From an uncultured Candidatus Saccharibacteria bacterium (GTDB lineage Bacteria; Patescibacteriota; Minisyncoccia; Phycocordibacterales; Zambryskibacteraceae), in contig CAYHLZ010000001.1 in the NCBI GenBank assembly GCA_964357635.1, positions 198,674 through 262,673 on the forward strand: a stretch of 64,000 bases of DNA. Direction: 5' to 3'. Numbering within the stretch: position 1 is the first letter of the stretch; each line of letters starts with the position of its first letter. The notes under the pieces were generated by a model, which was not told where the DNA came from, ran no database searches, and saw only the letters and a list, made by a program, of their open reading frames with translations. Made by a program: the position numbers and the translations under genes. Shown here one piece after another: positions 34,179 through 43,918 of the stretch.

Positions 34179-34216
34179 AAAAACCGCTCGATGAGAATCA
34201 AATTCTCATCGAGCGG
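34179..34216 (-). terminator. Intrinsic terminator: 15-bp perfect stem overlapping the stop of the 89-aa gene
   Basis: CCGCTCGATGAGAAT-caa-ATTCTCATCGAGCGG, followed on the minus strand by TTTTTCC. Confidence 0.7.
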
Positions 34217-34549: not shown

Positions 34550-34981
34550 CTACCAATTTTTACAACATTCAATAAGTTTTCTGCCTATCTCCTTCAGACG
34601 GTCATTTTTGTAAAAAAGATAAACGGTAAAAAATACAATCCACACCAAAATAATAATTCCCAAATCTCTTAACCATTCGCCGTTGACCAAAAGGACGAGA
34701 GAAATCGCCCAAAAAAGTGAAATAACAAATGGGAACTTGAAAATCTGCACCATGTCACTCTTACCGGAAAAGAAGTAGTACATTAAACCAACCGCGCTTC
34801 CACCTAAAAGAATGGCTAAAACAAGAGAATCTACTTCGGCGCCCGTAAAACGAAGAATTAGGAGCGTAAGCCAAGTAAGAGTAACGGAGGCGCAGAGAGC
34901 GCAAAAATCTTTCCTTGTTATTGTTCTGGCAATGAGTGAAAGAACGAAAAAACCCACCATTAAGATTAGAGCAAGCGTCAT
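34550..34981 (-). CDS. Integral membrane protein (4 TM)
   Basis: Hydrophobic profile; a 4-bp overlap with the upstream gene suggests an operon with the CxxC membrane protein. Confidence 0.4.
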   Translation of the reverse strand: MTLALILMVGFFVLSLIARTITRKDFCALCASVTLTWLTLLILRFTGAEVDSLVLAILLGGSAVGLMYYFFSGKSDMVQIFKFPFVISLFWAISLVLLVNGEWLRDLGIIILVWIVFFTVYLFYKNDRLKEIGRKLIECCKNW

Positions 34982-35496
34982 GACAAGAGTTCAACCACGA
35001 CTGACGCAACGACAAGAAGGAGGATGGCAATGGAAAGTCCTTGATACGGAAGAGTTTGTTTCCTTGTTCTGGTGATAAATTTGCTTATCGGATGAGCAAG
35101 AAACATGAGCACTGACCCTAAAAGCGTTCCTGCCAAAAACAGATTAACGGTATAGGTGTTGTGGAACAGTGTGCCGTACTCGCCTAAAATTTTTACATAA
35201 AGAGGTCCGTAGTCTCTGATGAGTGGCATTATGGGAATAATCGTTCCGAGAAATATCACTAGCCAGATTATTTGTGGCTGGTAAGGTAGGTACTCTTTCT
35301 TGGGAAGTTTGGAGAGCCAAGACGAGAGCGCCACCGCGAACCCTCCAATGAGAACTCCAACAACGACAGAAGAAATTCCGAGTGAAGTAGCCAGTATCGC
35401 CAGAGCCCCCGCCCCAACAGTACAGAGAGGACAATGTGCCAGTGCAAGCTTCGGGAAAAGGATTGCGACAGGTATCGTTAAGAGAGTTTTTTTCAT
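34978..35496 (-). CDS. Membrane protein with an N-terminal HCPLC (CxxC) motif
   Basis: Signal/TM followed by LALAHCPLCTVGAG, then 4-5 TM segments; it sits downstream of the csoR-DUF305-DUF1573 genes. Confidence 0.4.
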   Translation of the reverse strand: MKKTLLTIPVAILFPKLALAHCPLCTVGAGALAILATSLGISSVVVGVLIGGFAVALSSWLSKLPKKEYLPYQPQIIWLVIFLGTIIPIMPLIRDYGPLYVKILGEYGTLFHNTYTVNLFLAGTLLGSVLMFLAHPISKFITRTRKQTLPYQGLSIAILLLVVASVVVELLS

Positions 35497-35499
35497 CGA

Positions 35500-36018
35500 C
35501 TACAGTATAACCTCGGCCCTGATCTCAAGTTGGAGCGCTCCGCCATTCTCGTCCACAAGGTAAACATATCTTTCAATTACACCCACACCCGCCGGACCGT
35601 GTGCCGCAGGGTCAAAGACCACCTCAATAACTCTTTCTTCACCCACCTTCAGAATCTCATTTGCTTTTGGCACGCTGTTACCGTGTCCCGGCATGCCGAA
35701 AGGACCTCTTTTATTCTCACCGTTTATTATGTAGGCATTGGTACACATACAGGAAGTAACGACGCTGTCTACTCTGACATCTTGGTTACTCGTATTGGAA
35801 ACGGTGAAAGTCTTTTTTACCACACCGTCTTTCATGGCTATGGTACCGAAGTCGTATCTGGTTTCAGTTGCGCTTAATAGATTGTCAGAATTTACTTGAG
35901 CATCCGATGGTAAAACGGCGGTTTGATCGCCCTTGCCGAAGGAGAAAAGTCCGACAAAGAGCAGGGCTACAGCTGCTAGTGTTATAAGTGTCGTTTTCAT
36001 ATTACTTTGACCAAGCAT
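35500..36018 (-). CDS. DUF1573-like secreted protein
   Basis: Signal anchor; TFTVSNTSNQDVRV...VVTSCMCT motif typical of DUF1573 Ig-like proteins. Confidence 0.5.
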   Translation of the reverse strand: MLGQSNMKTTLITLAAVALLFVGLFSFGKGDQTAVLPSDAQVNSDNLLSATETRYDFGTIAMKDGVVKKTFTVSNTSNQDVRVDSVVTSCMCTNAYIINGENKRGPFGMPGHGNSVPKANEILKVGEERVIEVVFDPAAHGPAGVGVIERYVYLVDENGGALQLEIRAEVIL

Positions 36019-36598
36019 CGTACCAACCTCTCATCATCTGAATCTCACTTGACTGAGACGTGATGATGTTATCCGCAAGAGTTTTCATCTCCTCTCTGTC
36101 TGTACTTACTGCAAGCATCCTTGCCATCATAATCGCCATCTCGTGGTGTGGAATCATTTGAGATATGAACTCAAGGTCAAAATCTTCGGCCGCCCTAAGT
36201 TGACCCAAGTCTCCTTCCATACCCATCATACTCATACCCATACTGCCGTGACCCATCATCCCGCCCATGCCTGAAGAGTAGCTTGGTGTCCCGCCAAACC
36301 AATCCGCATACCACCCGCGCATATCTTTATTTTCTCTTTCCTGTGCCTCAATGATTCCCTGAGCGAGAGAAAGAATTTCTTGGCGCTTGGATCGCTCAAG
36401 TGCAAGTTTCGCCATGCTGATAGCTCCCTCGTGATGTGGAATCATTTCCTCTATGAAGTGCCTGTCAATATTTTGGCCCGTTATAATACTCGCCTGTCTC
36501 GTACCCATCATGGGGTAGGTGTTAAACCATGGTGCGATAAGAATACCTAAAATAACGCCCACAATTCCCGCTCCTAAATATTTTATGCTGTTGTCCAT
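36002..36598 (-). CDS. DUF305 family protein with a Met/Gly/His-rich linker (copper-resistance associated)
   Basis: Two DUF305 repeats (EEMIPHHEGAISMA and SQMIPHHEMAIMMA) separated by GMGGMMGHGSMGMSMMGMEG. Confidence 0.7.
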   Translation of the reverse strand: MDNSIKYLGAGIVGVILGILIAPWFNTYPMMGTRQASIITGQNIDRHFIEEMIPHHEGAISMAKLALERSKRQEILSLAQGIIEAQERENKDMRGWYADWFGGTPSYSSGMGGMMGHGSMGMSMMGMEGDLGQLRAAEDFDLEFISQMIPHHEMAIMMARMLAVSTDREEMKTLADNIITSQSSEIQMMRGWYDAWSK

Positions 36599-36599
36599 A

Positions 36600-36872
36600 T
36601 TATTTTTTCTTTTGGGAAACGTTATAAATTTTTAAAATTTCTCTGACCGCTTTGTCACCCTTGCCGTGCTTCATCTGGTGAGCCACGTGAGTCTCCAAGT
36701 GGTTCTGGAGCATCAGCGCCTCAAAGGCTCCCACGGCGCTTTTAATTGCTTGCGCTTGGGTGATGATGTCAACACAGTACTTCTCTTCCTCAACCATTCT
36801 TTTAACACCCCTCACTTGTCCCTCAACGCGGTTCAATCGGCTTTTTAATTTGTTTTTCATATCTGGTTTCAT
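36600..36872 (-). CDS. csoR: CsoR/RcnR-family metal-sensing transcriptional repressor
   Basis: 90 aa; RLNRVEGQVRGVKRMVEEEKYCVDIITQ...H...H pattern carrying the conserved Cys and His metal ligands. Its own promoter contains the operator palindrome. Confidence 0.8.
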   Translation of the reverse strand: MKPDMKNKLKSRLNRVEGQVRGVKRMVEEEKYCVDIITQAQAIKSAVGAFEALMLQNHLETHVAHQMKHGKGDKAVREILKIYNVSQKKK

Positions 36873-36883
36873 ACTTAAATAGT

Positions 36884-36904
36884 ATATACCCCCATCGGGT
36901 ATAT
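36884..36904 (-). promoter_or_regulatory. CsoR-type operator in the csoR promoter spacer (copy 1)
   Basis: Minus-strand sequence TTGCAA-TATACCCGATGGGGGTA-TATACT places the pseudo-palindrome ATATACCCGATGGGGGTATAT between -35 and -10, 12 bp upstream of the csoR ATG. Confidence 0.7.
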
Positions 36905-36948
36905 TGCAAGCAGTCTATAAAGACCTCTGTGTATTACTTTATAATTTC

Positions 36949-39075
36949 TCATGCTTTAACTAAGTCCCTCTCAACACGCTTCAGAAGCACCGCATTTGTA
37001 GCCACAATTATCGAAGAAATACTCATGAGAAGTGCCGCGAATTCCGGGCGGAGCATAATACCGAAGCTTGGATACAAGATTCCACCAGCTACTGGTATAG
37101 CTAGAATATTGTAGATTGAAGCCCAGAAAAGGTTTTGCTTCATCTTCCAAACTGTCGCCTTGCTTAAGGTTATTGCTCGAAGAATGTCTAACGGATCAGA
37201 TTTCATAAGGACAACCTTTGCTGTCTCAATCGCCACATCAGTACCTGCGCCAATTGCTATGCCAACATCGGCTTGAGCAAGCGCAGGAGCATCGTTGACA
37301 CCGTCACCGACCATGGCGGTAAATTTTCCTTCCTGCTGAAGTTTTTTGACGTAGTTGGCTTTATCCTCTGGCATCACTTCGGCAAACACTCTATCTATAC
37401 CGATCTGTTTCGCCACCCTTTCTGCCGTCGTCTTGTTGTCTCCGGTAATCATTACGGTTTCAATCCCAAGGTTCTTTAACTTTCTTACTGCTTCACTCGC
37501 ATTTTGCTTTATCGGATCGGCGGCTCCGATAACCGCTTTTACAGAACCGTCAATAGCCAATACCATGATGGTTTCTCCTCGGTCTAGGAACTCATTAATT
37601 TTTTGTTCCAACCCGCCAAGAACAATTTTATTGTCGCGCATGAGCTTCACTGTCCCGACAAGTATATTTTTATCGAGAACTGTCGCTTTTACTCCAAGTC
37701 CGGAAAGGTTCTCGAACCTTTCAACATTTTGAGGCAGTTCCAACTTTCGAGATTTAAGCTCATCAAGCACAGCTTGAGCTAAAGGATGAGATGATTTCGC
37801 TTCTGCTGCACCGACCAGTCGAAGCGCCTCTTCCTCACTAAAACCTTCCACAGTCGCTATATCCGTCACTTTGGGTTTTCCTAGAGTCAAGGTGCCTGTT
37901 TTGTCTAAGACGATTGCTTGAATTTTTGATACTTGTTCAAGGGTCGGAGCGTCCTTGATAAGAATATTGTGCTTTGCCCCCAAGCCGGTCCCAACTGCAA
38001 CGGCCGTTGGCGTAGCAAGTCCAAGAGCATCAGGACAAGCGATGACAACAGTAGCGATAGCAAAAGAGAGCGCGAGCATTATGGAGGACCCTACTACAAA
38101 AAACCAAATGCCAAAGACCAAAAGACCCGACCCTACCGCCGCAATAACGAGATACTTGGCAAACCTGTCAGCAATTTTTTGTCCTGGTGCCTTTGAGTTC
38201 TGCGCCTCTTCAACCATGCGGACAATTTGGGCGAGGGCGGTATCTTTGCCAATTTTTGTCGCCTTAAACCTTACCGAGCCGGCGGTGTTTATAGAGCCAC
38301 CAATTACCTGATCTCCATACTTTTTAGCGACTGGAAGCGACTCTCCGGTAACTAAAGACTCGTCAATGGCTGTTTCGCCGAGAATGATTTCACCGTCAAC
38401 CGGAACTTTGTCGCCCGGCTTAAGGATGACTATATCGCCAAGTTCTATCTCGGAAGTAGAAACGAGTGTTTCTATGCCATTCTTCAAGATTCTTGCTTGG
38501 GGTGGTACGAGATTAAAAAGTGCCTGCAAGGCGTCTGTTGTTCCGCGCCGAGATTTCATCTCCATCCAGTGACCGAACAGCACGAAAGTAATAAGCATCG
38601 CGGCCGCTTCATAGTATGAATCTGCGCCACCAGTCAAAGTCAAAAGAACGCTGAAACCGTATGCTGCCGTAATACCAACCGCAATAAGGACAGCCATGTT
38701 GAGGGTTTTATTTTTCAGGGCGAAGTAGGTTGAATATAGGAATATCCACCCGGAGTAGAAAAATACCGGCGTTGAGAGGATAAAGAGAAGCCACGGGAGC
38801 GGTATCGGAGACGGGAGATTAAGCTTCAAAAACTCTGTGCCTAAAGGTGAATACAGGATGATTGGAATTGTTAATATAAGCGAGAAGAAAAACTTATTCC
38901 GAATATCTATTTCCATGAGACGCGCCATCTCCCGACCAGCAAGACCGGTGTGATCCATACCCATCGTCATCGACATGCTCATTTTGAACTTCTTCCAAAA
39001 ATTCATTTTAGATACATTGCCCATCACATGTCCCGAGTGAACATGGTGTTTTTCGTTATGGTGATTGTGGTTCAT
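36949..39075 (-). CDS. P1B-type heavy-metal (probably copper) translocating ATPase; start placed at MNHNHH
   Basis: DKTGTLT, GDGVNDAPAL, TGES and a TM6 CPD(ALGLATP) motif. His-rich then Met-rich N-terminus (NHNHHNEKHHVHSGH...MSMSMTMGMDH). About 708 aa. Confidence 0.8.
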   Translation of the reverse strand: MNHNHHNEKHHVHSGHVMGNVSKMNFWKKFKMSMSMTMGMDHTGLAGREMARLMEIDIRNKFFFSLILTIPIILYSPLGTEFLKLNLPSPIPLPWLLFILSTPVFFYSGWIFLYSTYFALKNKTLNMAVLIAVGITAAYGFSVLLTLTGGADSYYEAAAMLITFVLFGHWMEMKSRRGTTDALQALFNLVPPQARILKNGIETLVSTSEIELGDIVILKPGDKVPVDGEIILGETAIDESLVTGESLPVAKKYGDQVIGGSINTAGSVRFKATKIGKDTALAQIVRMVEEAQNSKAPGQKIADRFAKYLVIAAVGSGLLVFGIWFFVVGSSIMLALSFAIATVVIACPDALGLATPTAVAVGTGLGAKHNILIKDAPTLEQVSKIQAIVLDKTGTLTLGKPKVTDIATVEGFSEEEALRLVGAAEAKSSHPLAQAVLDELKSRKLELPQNVERFENLSGLGVKATVLDKNILVGTVKLMRDNKIVLGGLEQKINEFLDRGETIMVLAIDGSVKAVIGAADPIKQNASEAVRKLKNLGIETVMITGDNKTTAERVAKQIGIDRVFAEVMPEDKANYVKKLQQEGKFTAMVGDGVNDAPALAQADVGIAIGAGTDVAIETAKVVLMKSDPLDILRAITLSKATVWKMKQNLFWASIYNILAIPVAGGILYPSFGIMLRPEFAALLMSISSIIVATNAVLLKRVERDLVKA

Positions 39076-39083
39076 GTATTTTT

Positions 39084-39542
39084 TTACTCCAAGTTCCATT
39101 TAAACAAACGCTCGGAGACTCCGCCAATGTTCTTGATTTTTAATTCAAGATAGGATGGCAGAGGATTTGTCGATTTAAATATCAAAACTCCTTCGCGATG
39201 ATGACCTCCTGGCTCTGACCCTTCCCATTTAACAGCCTTATATTCTTTGCCGTTGCCATCAACCAGTACGGCAATTTTTGCCATATCCTGATCCAGTTCA
39301 ACTGAATGTGTATCTAAAACAATATCAAATTTCCATTCTTTTGAATCAACAGATAAAACATATGGGGTAACTGTGACCACTACGTTTGCTTGATTATCGG
39401 TTCTTGATTCCCATTTTTGCTCTGTATCAGAAACCGAAGAATCACTTTGAGCCGGACTGGCGGCTGGCTTGGGATTATAGAAAAATAGCAATCCGACTAT
39501 AAACGCAAGCGCTAAAATGAATATTGATACGGTTTTATACAT
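39084..39542 (-). CDS. Secreted hypothetical protein (possible metal-binding beta-sandwich), upstream of the ATPase
   Basis: Signal anchor; GGHHREG motif; 152 aa. Confidence 0.35.
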   Translation of the reverse strand: MYKTVSIFILALAFIVGLLFFYNPKPAASPAQSDSSVSDTEQKWESRTDNQANVVVTVTPYVLSVDSKEWKFDIVLDTHSVELDQDMAKIAVLVDGNGKEYKAVKWEGSEPGGHHREGVLIFKSTNPLPSYLELKIKNIGGVSERLFKWNLE

Positions 39543-39981
39543 GATATCTTTTAAATTTAATAACTTTACTACCTATAAAAATAATGCCGAATAAGTTAAA
39601 GGCAATACCAATCCAGAAAATTTCAATCTGGTACTGGGCAATGATAACAAGAGCTCCAGCAATACCTAATATAGGCACAATATTGGCAAGATAGTGGGCA
39701 CAGCAAGAGACCATCGAGAGAGTAGAAGTTGTGCCTGTCACCGCTACTGTCTTATCTTTCATGATCATGTTACCCGTCTTCACCAAATACTTCAGGTATG
39801 AGTACAGCCCAATCTGAATGCCGAAGCCGACTGACAAACTCACAATAAAATACCAAAAATTGGAAAACTGGTTTTGAGCGAAGTCCCAACCGGAGACTAG
39901 CGTAAGAACGGTAAAATAGACACCAAGTAAAAGTCCGCTTGCCAGCACTCCGTACACAATTGCTTTGACTGAATTTCCCAT
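39535..39981 (-). CDS. Membrane protein with a CCAHY motif; the real start is probably the internal Met, while the ORF runs to 40206
   Basis: The first 75 codons of the long ORF are low-complexity and overlap the upstream small gene. From MGNSVKAIVYG onward there are 4 TM segments. Confidence 0.4.
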   Translation of the reverse strand: MGNSVKAIVYGVLASGLLLGVYFTVLTLVSGWDFAQNQFSNFWYFIVSLSVGFGIQIGLYSYLKYLVKTGNMIMKDKTVAVTGTTSTLSMVSCCAHYLANIVPILGIAGALVIIAQYQIEIFWIGIAFNLFGIIFIGSKVIKFKRYHV

Positions 39982-40024
39982 AATTATTTTTGGGTATCTC
40001 TCACTATCTCTCTCCCCGAGTTTC

Positions 40025-40240
40025 TTATAACCCCTCGCGCTCCAGTTGGCGACGATAGATAGCGCAGATGCCGGCAGAGATTGATATGAGTGTGAGAATG
40101 ATTGCGTCGTAATAGCAGTGCTGTTGCGTAAATCCAAAAATAGTTCCGTTCTCACCGGCAAGCCACGCTCCAATAAGTGCGAGCGCGCCCCAAATACCGG
40201 TAACAATGGATATCCAGTGAATGAATGATGATTTTTTCAT
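40025..40240 (-). CDS. Small 2-TM membrane protein (71 aa)
   Basis: Two hydrophobic helices and a conserved-looking QQHCYYD. Confidence 0.35.
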   Translation of the reverse strand: MKKSSFIHWISIVTGIWGALALIGAWLAGENGTIFGFTQQHCYYDAIILTLISISAGICAIYRRQLEREGL

Positions 40241-40265
40241 ATTATTTATTTAATTTATGATTATT

Positions 40266-41225
40266 TTATATACCGCACCCGCCTTGTTGCCTCTTCGGTG
40301 TAACTGTTTCTCCCGTGCCAACCCCGCACCCGCCCTCTCCTCTTTGTTGCCCCGATTGGCTCACTTGGGCAACGATTCTTGCGTAACCTTGAGCGCTCGA
40401 ATAATCGGCACCAAGCACCTTTTGAGGACTTATATCTTTCCATTCGATTCCACTCTTTTCCATATAAGACCCAATAGTCACGTAGGTGTCCGGAAACCAA
40501 TAAGAATTAACGATGAGAGCAGCTTTCCACATATCCTCTTCGCTTGCGCCTTGTGAGGCCATAAGTTCAAGAAGTCCGAGCATAGCCATGCCGTGGTTAC
40601 AGTCGGGAAAATGAACAGAATTGGCGCAACAGGGTCTGTATATGCCACGCGAGATTCTCTCTACCAGAGACTGCTGTTCGGGCGTCAGATTAAAAAATGT
40701 ATGTTTGCTGTAGTGGTCCATGGGATCTCCTTTTGCGATAGTCCAGCCCCCCGTTGAAGCAAAATTTCCGGCTCCGCCGTAGGAAGGATTTGTCATCTCA
40801 CCAGTCTCTAGAATTGGATTTGAGTTCGCGAGCCCGAGTACCCAGAATAGATTCAGGAGATACCCGGCATTGTCCTGAGTAATTTTGAGCTGGCCGTTGT
40901 TCTGTCCGAGAAGCAGATTCTTGTATTCTTCGGTGAATGCGCCTCTTTTTTCGTAGATGGCCTTGAATTTGTCGGCATCAATTGCGCCTAGGCTTGCGAG
41001 CTTGGCGCCGAGATCACTCCAAGTAACAGGCAAAACAAATCCTTCAGGTGGTAGAACTTTTTTCTCTAATTCTCTGATTTGTCTTTGCTCTGATGCGCCA
41101 AGAGAGTCGGCTCTTTCTTGATTTATTATTTTTGAATCTGTTGTATAAATTAAGGCACTGGCAAGAATTGTTGCGGAAATGACTATGCTCGCCGGAATCA
41201 AATTGTTTCTCGAATCCAGTTTCAT
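40266..41225 (-). CDS. Membrane-anchored Cys/His-rich protein (candidate copper-binding), first gene of the operator-controlled ATPase operon
   Basis: N-terminal TM; PCCANSVHFPDCNHGMAM and C-terminal GGCGVGTG...GGCGI motifs. The promoter immediately upstream carries the operator palindrome. Confidence 0.4.
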   Translation of the reverse strand: MKLDSRNNLIPASIVISATILASALIYTTDSKIINQERADSLGASEQRQIRELEKKVLPPEGFVLPVTWSDLGAKLASLGAIDADKFKAIYEKRGAFTEEYKNLLLGQNNGQLKITQDNAGYLLNLFWVLGLANSNPILETGEMTNPSYGGAGNFASTGGWTIAKGDPMDHYSKHTFFNLTPEQQSLVERISRGIYRPCCANSVHFPDCNHGMAMLGLLELMASQGASEEDMWKAALIVNSYWFPDTYVTIGSYMEKSGIEWKDISPQKVLGADYSSAQGYARIVAQVSQSGQQRGEGGCGVGTGETVTPKRQQGGCGI

Positions 41226-41236
41226 ATATAAATAAC

Positions 41237-41257
41237 ATATACCCCCCTTAGGTATAT
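41237..41257 (-). promoter_or_regulatory. CsoR-type operator (copy 2) in the promoter of the ATPase operon
   Basis: Minus-strand sequence TTGCAA-TATACCTAAGGGGGGTA-TATGTT. Its 21-nt core ATATACCTAAGGGGGGTATAT matches copy 1. Confidence 0.65.
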
Positions 41258-41303
41258 TGCAAGTCCCCTATTAAAACTGGTGTGGATTACTTCTCCTACT
41301 TAA

Positions 41304-41453
41304 CTAAGATTTTTTAAAATCAGCCCAGAGAAACATTACGCCCAAAGCCAAGAAAAGACCCGCTTCCAACCAATTTTGTTTCTGAAAAGCTTCAATAAGG
41401 GCAAGGCCGAAAAATAAAACAAAGACAGCGAAATTTGCACCCAATTTATTCAT
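41304..41453 (-). CDS. Small hydrophobic protein (49 aa; MNKLGANFAVFVLFFGLALIEAF...); it is below the ORF-track length cutoff
   Basis: ATG to TAG, 150 nt, two hydrophobic segments. Found by manual translation of the minus strand. Confidence 0.3.
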   Translation of the reverse strand: MNKLGANFAVFVLFFGLALIEAFQKQNWLEAGLFLALGVMFLWADFKKS

Positions 41454-41504: not shown

Positions 41505-41533
41505 TTGACACTTTGCCTAGTATCTGCTATACT
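41505..41533 (+). promoter_or_regulatory. Sigma70-type promoter P1 (TTGACA-N17-TATACT) driving sRNA-like unit 1
   Basis: TTGACA at 41505-41510 and TATACT at 41528-41533, separated by a 17-nt spacer. Confidence 0.65.
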
Positions 41534-41539
41534 ACTCAT

Positions 41540-41728
41540 GTGGCTCTTTGGATTGCTCCTGGCGCTCGAAACATGTTAGACCTGTGGTTTGCAGACCGAA
41601 CCTTGGTCTGACAGGTTCCTCGATGATGTCGCCTTGAGGGACGACAAAGTCCGAGATAGCGCTTCGTTGAAGCTATACCGAGAACCATACTGGGCCCGGG
41701 GGCGAAAACTCCCGGGCTCTTTTTATTT
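41540..41728 (+). ncRNA. Candidate small non-coding RNA 1 (about 185 nt), family unknown
   Basis: Consensus promoter immediately upstream. An intrinsic terminator (GCCCGGGGG-cgaaaact-CCCGGGC then CTTTTTATTT) at 41692-41728. Several internal hairpins; no credible ORF. Confidence 0.5.
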
Positions 41729-41755: not shown

Positions 41756-41784
41756 TTGACACTTACTCTTGTGTCTGCTATACT
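41756..41784 (+). promoter_or_regulatory. Sigma70-type promoter P2, near-identical to P1
   Basis: TTGACA at 41756-41761 (a second overlapping TTGACA at 41749-41754) and TATACT at 41779-41784. The TCTGCTATACT block is shared with P1. Confidence 0.65.
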
Positions 41785-41790
41785 CCACAG

Positions 41791-42015
41791 TGGACTGGCT
41801 GAAAGGAGAGTGTCTTCAACAACGACCTGAATCGCTCGTCAAATCTTTATTTCAACACCAGGACCTGCATCATCATCACCGGCACTTCGACCGACGGCAT
41901 CACCGGCGGCGCGCCGCGCGACACGGCCGAGGGCACGAAGGAGTACTAGCTCCCGAGTGCACGGCCCCACGGGCCCGGGAAGGACTTCAAACTTCCCGGG
42001 CCTGTTTCATTTTTA
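41791..42015 (+). ncRNA. Candidate small non-coding RNA 2 (about 225 nt), with a GC-rich core, family unknown
   Basis: Promoter P2 upstream. Terminator GGCCCGGGAAG-gacttcaaa-CTTCCCGGGCC then TGTTTCATTTTT at 41972-42015. A convergent gene follows, so it is not a 5' leader. Confidence 0.5.
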
Positions 42016-43573: not shown

Positions 43574-43747
43574 CTAATTTGGCTTGTGGAAGTGTTTGCC
43601 CACGTAGTACGGCCAGATGAAGAGGGCGAGAACCCCTTTCCAGAAAGGAAGATGAAGATAGCCAATGCTGAAAATCCACCCAATCATCCAGATAGCACTG
43701 CACGCCTGATTTATTTCTATTGTTTTTACTGTTTCTGCTATTTCCAT
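43574..43747 (-). CDS. Small membrane protein (57 aa), tandem paralog 1; below the ORF-track cutoff
   Basis: MEIAETVKTIEINQACSAIWMIGWIFSIGYLHLPFWKGVLALFIWPYYVGKHFHKPN; ATG to TAG. Confidence 0.4.
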   Translation of the reverse strand: MEIAETVKTIEINQACSAIWMIGWIFSIGYLHLPFWKGVLALFIWPYYVGKHFHKPN

Positions 43748-43756
43748 GATGAATTT

Positions 43757-43918
43757 TTAATTAATAAGCGCGAACTGGAGACCTAAGTAATACGGCCAGA
43801 GCGCTAGAGCTAAGAGCCCCTTACCGAAACTTAGGTGTAAGAAGCCAATAGTGAAAAGCCACCCTATAAGCCAAATTCCGCCCGTAAACACATGGTTTTC
43901 TATCTTTATCTTTTGCAT
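43757..43918 (-). CDS. Small membrane protein (53 aa), tandem paralog 2
   Basis: MQKIKIENHVFTGGIWLIGWLFTIGFLHLSFGKGLLALALWPYYLGLQFALIN; shares the GWxF(S/T)IGxLHLxFxKGxLALxxWPYY motif with paralog 1. Confidence 0.4.
   Translation of the reverse strand: MQKIKIENHVFTGGIWLIGWLFTIGFLHLSFGKGLLALALWPYYLGLQFALIN

Follow-up and report, generated by a model that had tools for sequence, protein, structure and literature searches.

The locus of interest lies on the minus strand of a 64-kb stretch of a Patescibacteria metagenome-assembled genome (contig CAYHLZ010000001.1; NCBI locus tags AAB719_009xx), hereafter referred to as the window. The host is a Parcubacterium, an uncultivated member of the Patescibacteria with a tiny genome. 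Between positions 41225 and 34550 the window carries ten tightly packed genes (gaps of at most 43 nt, or overlaps of 4–17 nt), arranged in two tandem units: an upstream unit B, ending with a P1B-type copper ATPase gene, and a downstream unit A, beginning with csoR (Table 1). The gene content and order agree with an earlier reading of the same DNA (the original prediction), in which the region was interpreted as a copper-homeostasis locus.

Six of the encoded proteins—p319, p71, CCAHY, GGHH, HCPLC and TM4—have no usable match in Pfam (E up to 10) or NCBIfam (E up to 1), one more than the five uncharacterized proteins counted previously. Two families that had been proposed for individual open reading frames (ORFs), YtkA-like and, for p71, DUF2892, matched none of them at a Pfam E of up to 10. 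The possibility that the small ORFs are spurious was rejected: each has conserved homologues, with invariant motifs at conserved positions. To place the locus in context, 80 species-representative related loci, many of them partial, were fetched through p319; related loci are referred to by L-numbers below. A 49-aa ORF at 41304–41453, upstream of operator 2, has a homologue in none of these 80 loci and therefore probably lies outside the copper locus, contrary to the boundary initially drawn. The start of CCAHY was taken to be the ATG at 39981, as annotated by NCBI, rather than the upstream TTG of the mechanical ORF list; with this start, the CCAHY and GGHH genes overlap by 8 nt.

Table 1. Genes, promoters, operators and repeat copies of the copper locus (window coordinates).
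Feature	Position	Strand	Remarks
p319: 319-aa Cys/His protein, N-terminally anchored, extracytoplasmic	41225-40266	-	unit B; no Pfam/NCBIfam model
p71: 71-aa protein with two transmembrane (TM) helices	40240-40025	-	unit B; no Pfam/NCBIfam model
CCAHY: 148-aa membrane protein with four TM helices	39981-39535	-	unit B; no Pfam/NCBIfam model
GGHH: 152-aa anchored Ig-like beta-sandwich ectoprotein	39542-39084	-	unit B; no Pfam/NCBIfam model
P1B copper ATPase, CopB-like, 716 aa	39099-36949	-	unit B; TIGR01511
CsoR-family repressor, x-C-H-H type	36872-36600	-	unit A; PF02583
CopM-family (DUF305 x2) anchored ectoprotein	36598-36002	-	unit A; PF03713, NCBIfam CopM
DUF1573 anchored Ig-like ectoprotein	36018-35500	-	unit A; PF07610
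HCPLC: 172-aa membrane protein	35496-34978	-	unit A; no Pfam/NCBIfam model
TM4: 143-aa multi-TM 'CC-tail' membrane protein	34981-34550	-	unit A; no Pfam/NCBIfam model
Promoter/operator 1	36881..36909	-	-35 TTGCAA 36909-36904; box TATACCCGATGGGGGTATA 36903-36885; -10 TATACT 36886-36881
Promoter/operator 2	41234..41262	-	-35 TTGCAA 41262-41257; box TATACCTAAGGGGGGTATA 41256-41238; -10 TATGTT 41239-41234
93-nt repeat, copy 1	36847..36939	-	runs into the first codons of csoR
93-nt repeat, copy 2	41200..41292	-	upstream sequence, promoter, operator and first ~26 nt of the p319 coding sequence

Each unit opens with a sigma-70-like promoter, the 17-nt spacer of which is a CsoR box of the form TATACC-N5-GGGGTATA. 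Upstream of csoR the sequence reads TTGCAA-TATACCCGATGGGGGTA-TATACT, followed by 8 nt and the ATG; upstream of p319 it reads TTGCAA-TATACCTAAGGGGGGTA-TATGTT, again with 8 nt to the ATG. A search of all 64 kb with the pattern TATACCNNNNNGGGGTATA, allowing up to two mismatches, returned these two boxes and no other (0.21 expected by chance; none of 100 shuffles equalled the observed count), and both agree with the CsoR boxes published for Bradyrhizobium (TATACCCnnnnnGGGTATA) and Corynebacterium (ATACCCCnnnGGGGTAT; PMC5057107). The two promoters had been described as containing the same 27-nt operator: the box is indeed embedded in both, but the two 27-nt cores are 23/27 identical rather than the same. 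Promoter 2 scores 8/12, slightly below the threshold of the promoter scan. No Shine-Dalgarno sequence precedes either csoR or p319 and, since in both cases the -10 element ends 8 nt before the ATG, the two transcripts are probably leaderless.

The arrangement upstream of csoR recurs in relatives. Among the 80 p319-anchored loci, a box ATACC-N5-9-GGTAT is found just upstream of csoR in 25 species, in a constant layout consisting of (i) TTGAC(a/t), (ii) an ATACCC..GGGGTAT box, (iii) a -10 element overlapping the 3' arm of the box, and (iv) an ATG 9–13 nt past the box. Judging from these sequences, a promoter-embedded operator combined with a leaderless csoR is the standard design of the lineage, and its recurrence in 25 species is strong evidence that the CsoR sites of the window are functional. 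The division of the locus into two operons is less clear-cut: the two promoter-led units exist as proposed, but the stretch from the ATPase stop codon (36949) to the csoR promoter contains no intrinsic terminator. Transcription therefore probably continues from unit B into unit A, and the 'two operons' may be one long unit with an internal promoter.

How did the locus come to have a second operator? The two boxes form part of a 93-nt direct repeat (75% identity, 70/93 positions) that extends into the coding sequences of both csoR and p319. Indeed, the p319 protein of the window starts with MKLDSRNN, resembling the MKPDMKNK of CsoR, while p319 homologues start with M-x-N-E and have a longer tail; none of 79 p319 homologues is preceded by a CsoR box. 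The closest relative found, L169, encodes shared proteins that are 37–74% identical to those of the window, in a tightly packed operon with one box and the order csoR-YHS-CCAHY-GGHH-ATPase-DUF5676-CopM-DUF1573-p319-HCPLC-TM4. Nine genes of this operon are present in the window, which has p71 where L169 has YHS, and is without DUF5676. The order differs from that in L169: p319 stands at the head of the window's locus, and csoR, with a second copy of the promoter, follows the ATPase. The simplest reading of these sequences is a 93-nt duplication that joined a copy of the csoR promoter, together with the operator and the gene's first eight codons, in frame to p319, and to which the window would owe its second operator. 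The dual operator control put forward in the original prediction is present in the window, in the form of two boxes, but is peculiar to this genome.

The product of csoR belongs to the family previously assigned (PF02583, E 8.8e-26, 90.6 bits against a cut-off of 22.8), and its best match in the PDB is CsoR (4m1p, E 4e-16). Its ligands depart from the expected set: C33, H58 and H62 make up a C-H-H triad, not the canonical x-C-H-C (C36/H61/C65 in Mycobacterium tuberculosis). The x-C-H-H arrangement is that of Thermus thermophilus CsoR, and a family-wide analysis classes the type as a Cu sensor (PMC8643695); the T. thermophilus protein itself is reported to respond to several metals, including Zn and Cd (PMC5057107). 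Both types are common in the 80 loci, where 22 CsoR-family genes encode C-H-C and 21 encode C-H-H. Those C-H-C genes that were compared with the ATPase motifs lie beside pumps with CPC and HMA; the partners of C-H-H genes are pumps with CPH or CPC and, in the window, the CPD pump. L001, L007, L008, L026, L062 and L066 encode a second CsoR-family protein, a distinct paralogue that starts with MVDQKLKKRA(I/V)H, and L071 a similar one (MLNSDLKKRTLH). This paralogue has C-P-x-L after the ligand Cys and a C-H-H triad, lies downstream of p319 in each case (mostly directly after it), and has no box matching the search pattern nearby.

The P1B ATPase likewise falls into the family proposed for it (TIGR01511, 588.5 bits against 397; TIGR01525, 605 bits against 346), with one deviation: its metal-binding TM motif is CPD (IACPDALGLATP), neither the CPC of P1B-1 nor the CPH of P1B-3 pumps. 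The last two TM helices carry a YN motif (IYNILAIP) and a MxxSS-type motif (LMSISS), and the N-terminus is His/Met-rich and devoid of an HMA domain (MNHNHHNEKHHVHSGH, then MSMSMTMGMDH). A His-rich N-terminus, no HMA domain, YN(x)4P and MSxSS are features of CopB (P1B-3), a group for which a single report describes CPD, in an atypical subtype from three Rhizobiales (PMC5552934). The window's pump differs from CopB in having CPD in place of CPH, and from the rhizobial CPD enzymes, described there as His-poor, in its His- and Met-rich N-terminus. CPD pumps 54–58% identical to the window's are encoded in four related loci; that of L009 has its own CsoR box. The most similar of these pumps, in L006, L009 and L079, have at their N-terminus not a His/Met-rich stretch but a YTCPMHPEV..PGxCPxCGM metal-binding domain of the HMBD type (PF19335) seen in L086–L088. 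As for the wider complement of copper genes, neither an HMA chaperone nor a multicopper oxidase is encoded in the 64-kb window, as the original prediction stated, a negative that holds for these 64 kb only. For the multicopper oxidase the lack is a local feature: two out of three related loci encode one immediately behind the ATPase.

These features of repressor and pump bear on whether the metal is copper at all. A locus that senses or exports another metal (Ni, Co, Zn, Ag or Cd) would fit the C-H-H positions of the repressor, the segment of which, HLETHVAHQ, resembles that of Escherichia coli RcnR (HLTEHIVHQ), the 50-bit score with the NCBIfam RcnR model, and the Zn and Cd response of the T. 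thermophilus protein; in the pump, moreover, an Asp replaces the second Cys or the His of the metal-binding TM motif, giving the uncharacterized CPD. We nevertheless consider this explanation improbable. The repressor has no N-terminal His (the 'W' ligand of RcnR) and scores higher with RicR (66 bits) than with RcnR, its closest matches being CsoR and RicR; the operator is a CsoR box and not of the RcnR type, TACT-G6-N-AGTA (PMC5057107); in the ATPase, YN and MSxSS are of the copper type, and the Lys and DxG of Zn pumps are missing; and the partners in relatives are copper-linked families (CopM, CopG, multicopper oxidase, YHS and HMBD). As in the CsoR-copZA regulons of Bacillus subtilis, M. 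tuberculosis and Corynebacterium glutamicum, and with T. thermophilus CsoR, a PF02583 repressor is combined with a G-tract pseudopalindrome (TATACCC-N-GGGGTATA) overlapping the promoter, and an autoregulated csoR shares a transcript with a copper P1B ATPase gene or lies beside it. The window differs from these regulons in the x-C-H-H ligands, the lack of CopZ/HMA, the leaderless mRNAs, the duplication of the box by promoter capture, and the presence of eight accessory genes, six of them without a described family.

Two of these accessory genes, CCAHY (1190 homologues) and GGHH (1366 homologues), form a recurrent pair: of 13 loci that carry both, 12 have them side by side and 11 have them overlapping, by 4 nt in most. 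In L086 and L169 the pair lies directly before the ATPase and downstream of csoR; in L087 and L088 it is in the same csoR-led run, with one to three genes between GGHH and the ATPase. L087 and L169 derive from groundwater of the Hainich or Rifle sites. In L030 (12856–13749), CCAHY-GGHH reads as one fused 297-aa ORF which, unless it is the result of a sequencing frameshift, is a Rosetta-stone hint of joint action. The third TM helix of CCAHY starts, on the side near the cytoplasm, with two vicinal Cys residues (SCCAHY). Identification of CCAHY as a MerT/MerF-type permease was rejected, there being no Pfam or NCBIfam match and only the vicinal CC in a TM helix in common. Some CCAHY homologues are named 'Cu+-exporting ATPase' by JGI; the idea of long ATPases carrying a CCAHY-like N-terminal domain was also rejected, as the extensions in question are tandem HMA domains or CPMHP..CPxCGM.

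GGHH has the invariant motifs THSVEL...Q-D and GHH-x-EG, and is modelled confidently (predicted local distance difference test, pLDDT, 80) as an anchored Ig-like beta-sandwich. The best structural match of this model is CrdA, and the predicted fold resembles CopC/CrdA-type sandwiches; at the sequence level GGHH matches none of CopC, CrdA or YtkA-like in Pfam or NCBIfam, its best hit being DUF5643 (E 0.015, below that family's cut-off). An anchored, His-conserved beta-sandwich together with a small polytopic membrane protein beside a copper pump recalls CopC/CopD, YcnI/YcnJ, CrdA, CusF and CueP. The differences are that there is no sequence match to any of these, that the window's proteins carry motifs of their own (THSVEL, GGHHREG and SCCAHY), and that CCAHY has only four TM helices, with an intramembrane vicinal Cys pair that recalls MerT/MerF.

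The likeness to CopC/CopD raises the question of direction. Were CCAHY/GGHH a CopD/CopC- or YcnJ/YcnI-like importer, and the ATPase a CopA2/FixI-like pump metallating a surface cuproenzyme, the locus would serve copper acquisition or cuproprotein maturation. Beyond the predicted fold of GGHH, this explanation could draw on the multicopper oxidase that follows the ATPase in two relatives and on the unusual, enzyme-like conservation of p319 (60–70% across classes). We regard it as very unlikely all the same: CsoR-type derepression occurs at high rather than low copper, copper uptake systems are normally copper-repressed, the window encodes no recognizable cuproenzyme, and the ATPase, with its His-rich N-terminus, resembles CopB rather than FixI.

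The protein at the head of unit B, p319, has at least 7586 homologues, at 60–70% identity; all those that are named belong to Patescibacteria, and none has a Pfam domain. Invariant positions include H171, H175, a C199-C200-x8-C209-x-H211 block and C300, with C317 nearly invariant; the block reads GIYRPCC-N-S..FPDCNHG-AMLG. Within 10 kb of p319, a P1B ATPase is present in 67 of the 80 species, DUF1573 in 59, a 'CC-tail' protein in 47 and CsoR in 39. The comparison originally suggested—whether the small ORFs occur beside P1B ATPases in other genomes—thus came out in favour of the idea of a lineage-specific elaboration of a CsoR regulon with Cys/His/Met proteins: the small ORFs are conserved beside copper ATPases and CsoR, with recurrences near copper genes that number in the hundreds of related genomes, and none has a clear non-metal function. 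In 12 loci, p71, the small neighbour of p319, adjoins csoR or the ATPase; its identity between species reaches 86%. In L013 (11021–12043), L058 (10991–12739) and many other loci, the gene after p319 encodes an HMA-DsbD_2 (PF13386) membrane protein, to which a cupredoxin domain is sometimes added. A separate CsoR box lies ~90 nt upstream of the HMA-DsbD_2 gene in L054; no HMA-DsbD_2 gene is encoded in the window.

Of the ectoproteins in unit A, the DUF305 protein matched the family named for it (PF03713, E 2e-43) and could already be classified as CopM (NCBIfam NF049983, 109.3 bits against a cut-off of 90, in two stretches), with a Met/His-rich linker. It shares with Synechocystis CopM (copMRS) the fit to this model, the Met/His-rich composition and the extracytoplasmic location, and differs in being under CsoR rather than the CopRS two-component system and in being membrane-tethered, in a cell that probably has no outer membrane. 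The DUF1573 assignment was also borne out (PF07610, E 3e-12, 46.8 bits against 26.1). The motifs TSCMCT, GMPGH and DPxAHGP are conserved in this protein; within TSCMCT, C90 is present in 61/61 and C92 in 58/61 aligned sequences. The family includes selenocysteine (UGC) variants at the CxC site (NCBIfam OS_HP2).

The remaining two genes of unit A encode HCPLC and TM4. HCPLC (222 cluster representatives at 50% identity) belongs to a family with an almost invariant A-x-A-H-C-P-L-C, followed by four TM helices; cleavage by signal peptidase is predicted to leave His-Cys-Pro-Leu-Cys as the mature, outward-facing N-terminus. In the TM4 family, a CxxC at the start of a TM helix and a terminal CC are invariant, and both are predicted to be cytoplasmic because of the positively charged loop beside the former and the Lys/Arg-rich C-terminal tail that holds the latter. 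A separate metagenome scan, anchored on HCPLC, yielded 80 loci (a narrower alignment was used, the first being too diverse). DUF411/CopG lies immediately upstream of HCPLC in 67 of these; immediately downstream is either TM4 (55 loci) or a soluble CC-ending protein (15 loci), together 70/80. Among the 51 HCPLC loci of at least 5 kb, 34 contain a P1B ATPase, 23 CsoR and 17 p319. No locus has both TM4 and the soluble CC-tail protein near p319, which suggests that the two are interchangeable. A CopZ substitute would be expected to go with HMA-less ATPases; TM4 loci are somewhat enriched in CPH/CPD pumps but occur with CPC+HMA pumps as well. A block in L083 (5509–8499; also in L084) groups a p319-like Cys domain (hhalign probability 76%, E 2e-5) with DUF411/CopG, HCPLC, the soluble CC-tail protein and a GGHH homologue (E 1e-28), on a groundwater contig that looks archaeal by its GatD-type and intein-containing S-adenosylmethionine synthetase genes. 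This suggests a copper toolkit common to bacteria of the candidate phyla radiation (CPR) and DPANN-like archaea.

In the window, HCPLC and TM4 stand where most relatives have a CcdA/DsbD-type channel and a CC-tail protein. Neither could itself be identified as a CcdA/DsbD_TM protein: neither has a Pfam match, nor do 38 HCPLC members, and HCPLC has a single N-terminal CPLC; a 259-aa protein of relatives does join DsbD_TM on iteration. In combining Cys-rich ectoproteins with Cys-bearing membrane proteins in a copper operon, the locus resembles CopG (DUF411) modules and Scs/DsbD-CcdA-CcmH systems; the slot that holds CopG, CcdA/DsbD_TM, Redoxin or HMA-DsbD_2 in relatives is, in the window, occupied by none of these but by DUF1573, HCPLC and TM4.

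This resemblance invites an explanation in which copper is only the inducer. DUF1573, HCPLC/CcdA-like proteins, CC-tail proteins and p319 would be the core of what is mainly an extracytoplasmic thiol-disulfide maintenance system (an analogue of Scs or DsbD-CcmG-CcmH), made up of redox enzymes rather than copper binders, in which reducing power moved across the membrane repairs copper-catalysed mis-oxidation of surface cysteines. A DsbD/CcdA-type membrane protein near p319 in 74–76 of the 80 species, Redoxin/AhpC-TSA or thioredoxin genes in the same clusters of relatives, a p319 model whose best structural match is CcmH (a lead only), and selenocysteine at the DUF1573 CxC site, typical of redox proteins, all point this way. 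Set against them are the window itself, which has no CcdA/DsbD or thioredoxin gene; HCPLC, whose one CxxC makes a CcdA-like electron relay not evident and whose usual partner, CopG/DUF411, is a known copper-resistance family; and the conserved Met/His flanking the DUF1573 site (TSCMCT, GMPGH), as in Cu(I) sites. On balance we think this explanation, the main alternative, unlikely, and note that it partly overlaps with the one we prefer.

That preferred reading, to which we give a probability of roughly 0.65, is of a copper-stress regulon combining efflux with tethered extracytoplasmic handling of copper and thiols. What was observed are the gene families, the layout of operators and promoters, and the conservation and synteny of the genes in other species; that the metal is copper, which way it is passed on, and what each of the six unnamed proteins does biochemically are inferred from these. 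A CsoR-family tetramer of the x-C-H-H type would sit on the two boxes in the -35/-10 spacers of the leaderless promoters and, upon a rise in cytoplasmic Cu(I), leave them, such that both units are transcribed. From unit B, the CopB-like, HMA-less CPD ATPase would pump copper out; GGHH, at the outer face of the pump, and CCAHY would accept the exported copper or pass it on, in the manner of CopC/CopD, CusF or CueP; p71 would be a possible small subunit of the ATPase; and p319 would contribute an ectoprotein with a Cys3-His cluster. Unit A would renew the repressor and add the tethered copper binder CopM, the DUF1573 ectoprotein with its Cys-Met-Cys site, and the membrane pair HCPLC/TM4, in the slot of a CcdA/DsbD-type thiol-reductant channel plus CC-tail protein. 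Together, these proteins would bind Cu(I) outside the cytoplasm and, under copper stress, maintain surface thiols in the reduced state.

Several points weigh against this reading. To our knowledge, no CPD ATPase has ever been characterized. The strict copper specificity of the predicted sensor is weakened by its third ligand being a His, the T. thermophilus type being multi-metal. On the regulatory side, the -10 element of operator 2 (TATGTT) is weak, and separate regulation of each unit is open to doubt given the missing terminator. As for the individual proteins, the Cys and His residues of p71 are not conserved, and the predicted model of p319 is mediocre (pLDDT 65): a sequence profile of p319 found no match in the PDB at E up to 10, and a Foldseek search with the model found nothing below E 1. 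Nor could p319 be identified as CcmH, since the LRCxxC motif of CcmH is absent (RPCC-x8-C-x-H is found instead) and there is no Pfam match at E up to 10.

Outside the locus, three features of the window were recorded. Just upstream, on the plus strand, lie two tandem candidate small RNAs (41505–41728 and 41756–42014). Both have the same near-consensus promoter (TTGACA-17-TATACT with TG, 11/12), within an 81%-identical direct repeat formed by the promoter regions, and a strong GC-rich terminator; their predicted folds beat those of shuffled sequences (z -4.5 and -3.4), the first folding as a long closed rod. No Rfam family scored above threshold in the sequence upstream of the locus, candidate small RNAs included. 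Further upstream, on the minus strand, two adjacent paralogous ORFs encode small membrane proteins of 57 and 53 aa (43574–43747 and 43757–43918) with the common motif IW(M/L)IGW(I/L)F(S/T)IG(Y/F)LHL..(W/G)KG.LAL..WPYY.G. Downstream of the locus, a perfect 15-nt inverted repeat (CCGCTCGATGAGAAT / ATTCTCATCGAGCGG, 3-nt loop, 34184–34216) overlaps the end of an 89-aa ORF; no T-run follows it.

Both the pump and the logic of regulation described here belong to known kinds; what is new is the set of accessory genes and the duplication of the operator. Literature searches on these families and on copper handling in Patescibacteria turned up nothing. A bolder and tentative possibility, which we hold to be clearly less probable than the copper-stress regulon as such, is that the accessory proteins constitute an undescribed toolkit replacing CopZ, Cus and CueO in the CPR and in at least one archaeal-looking groundwater lineage. 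In such a toolkit, the CC-tail protein (TM4 or soluble) might be the missing cytoplasmic Cu(I) chaperone, HCPLC an outward copper site, DUF1573/CopG its ecto-partner, CCAHY-GGHH a pump-exit acceptor, and p319 a new Cys3-His copper/thiol ectoenzyme.

The Patescibacteria make up a large share of bacterial diversity and have minimal genomes and a life attached to other cells; their metal homeostasis is essentially unstudied. The locus keeps a classical CsoR switch and a P-type pump, and surrounds them with at least six conserved families for which no Pfam or NCBIfam model exists. The Cys/His motifs of these unnamed families, which are invariant in each, lead to a testable prediction of metal binding. 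The window also offers an example of how a regulon may gain a second operator, by duplication of a promoter, operator and gene 5' end and their fusion in frame to another gene. The direct wiring of p319 to a CsoR box in this genome is, finally, a regulatory argument for its membership of the regulon that is absent from its relatives.

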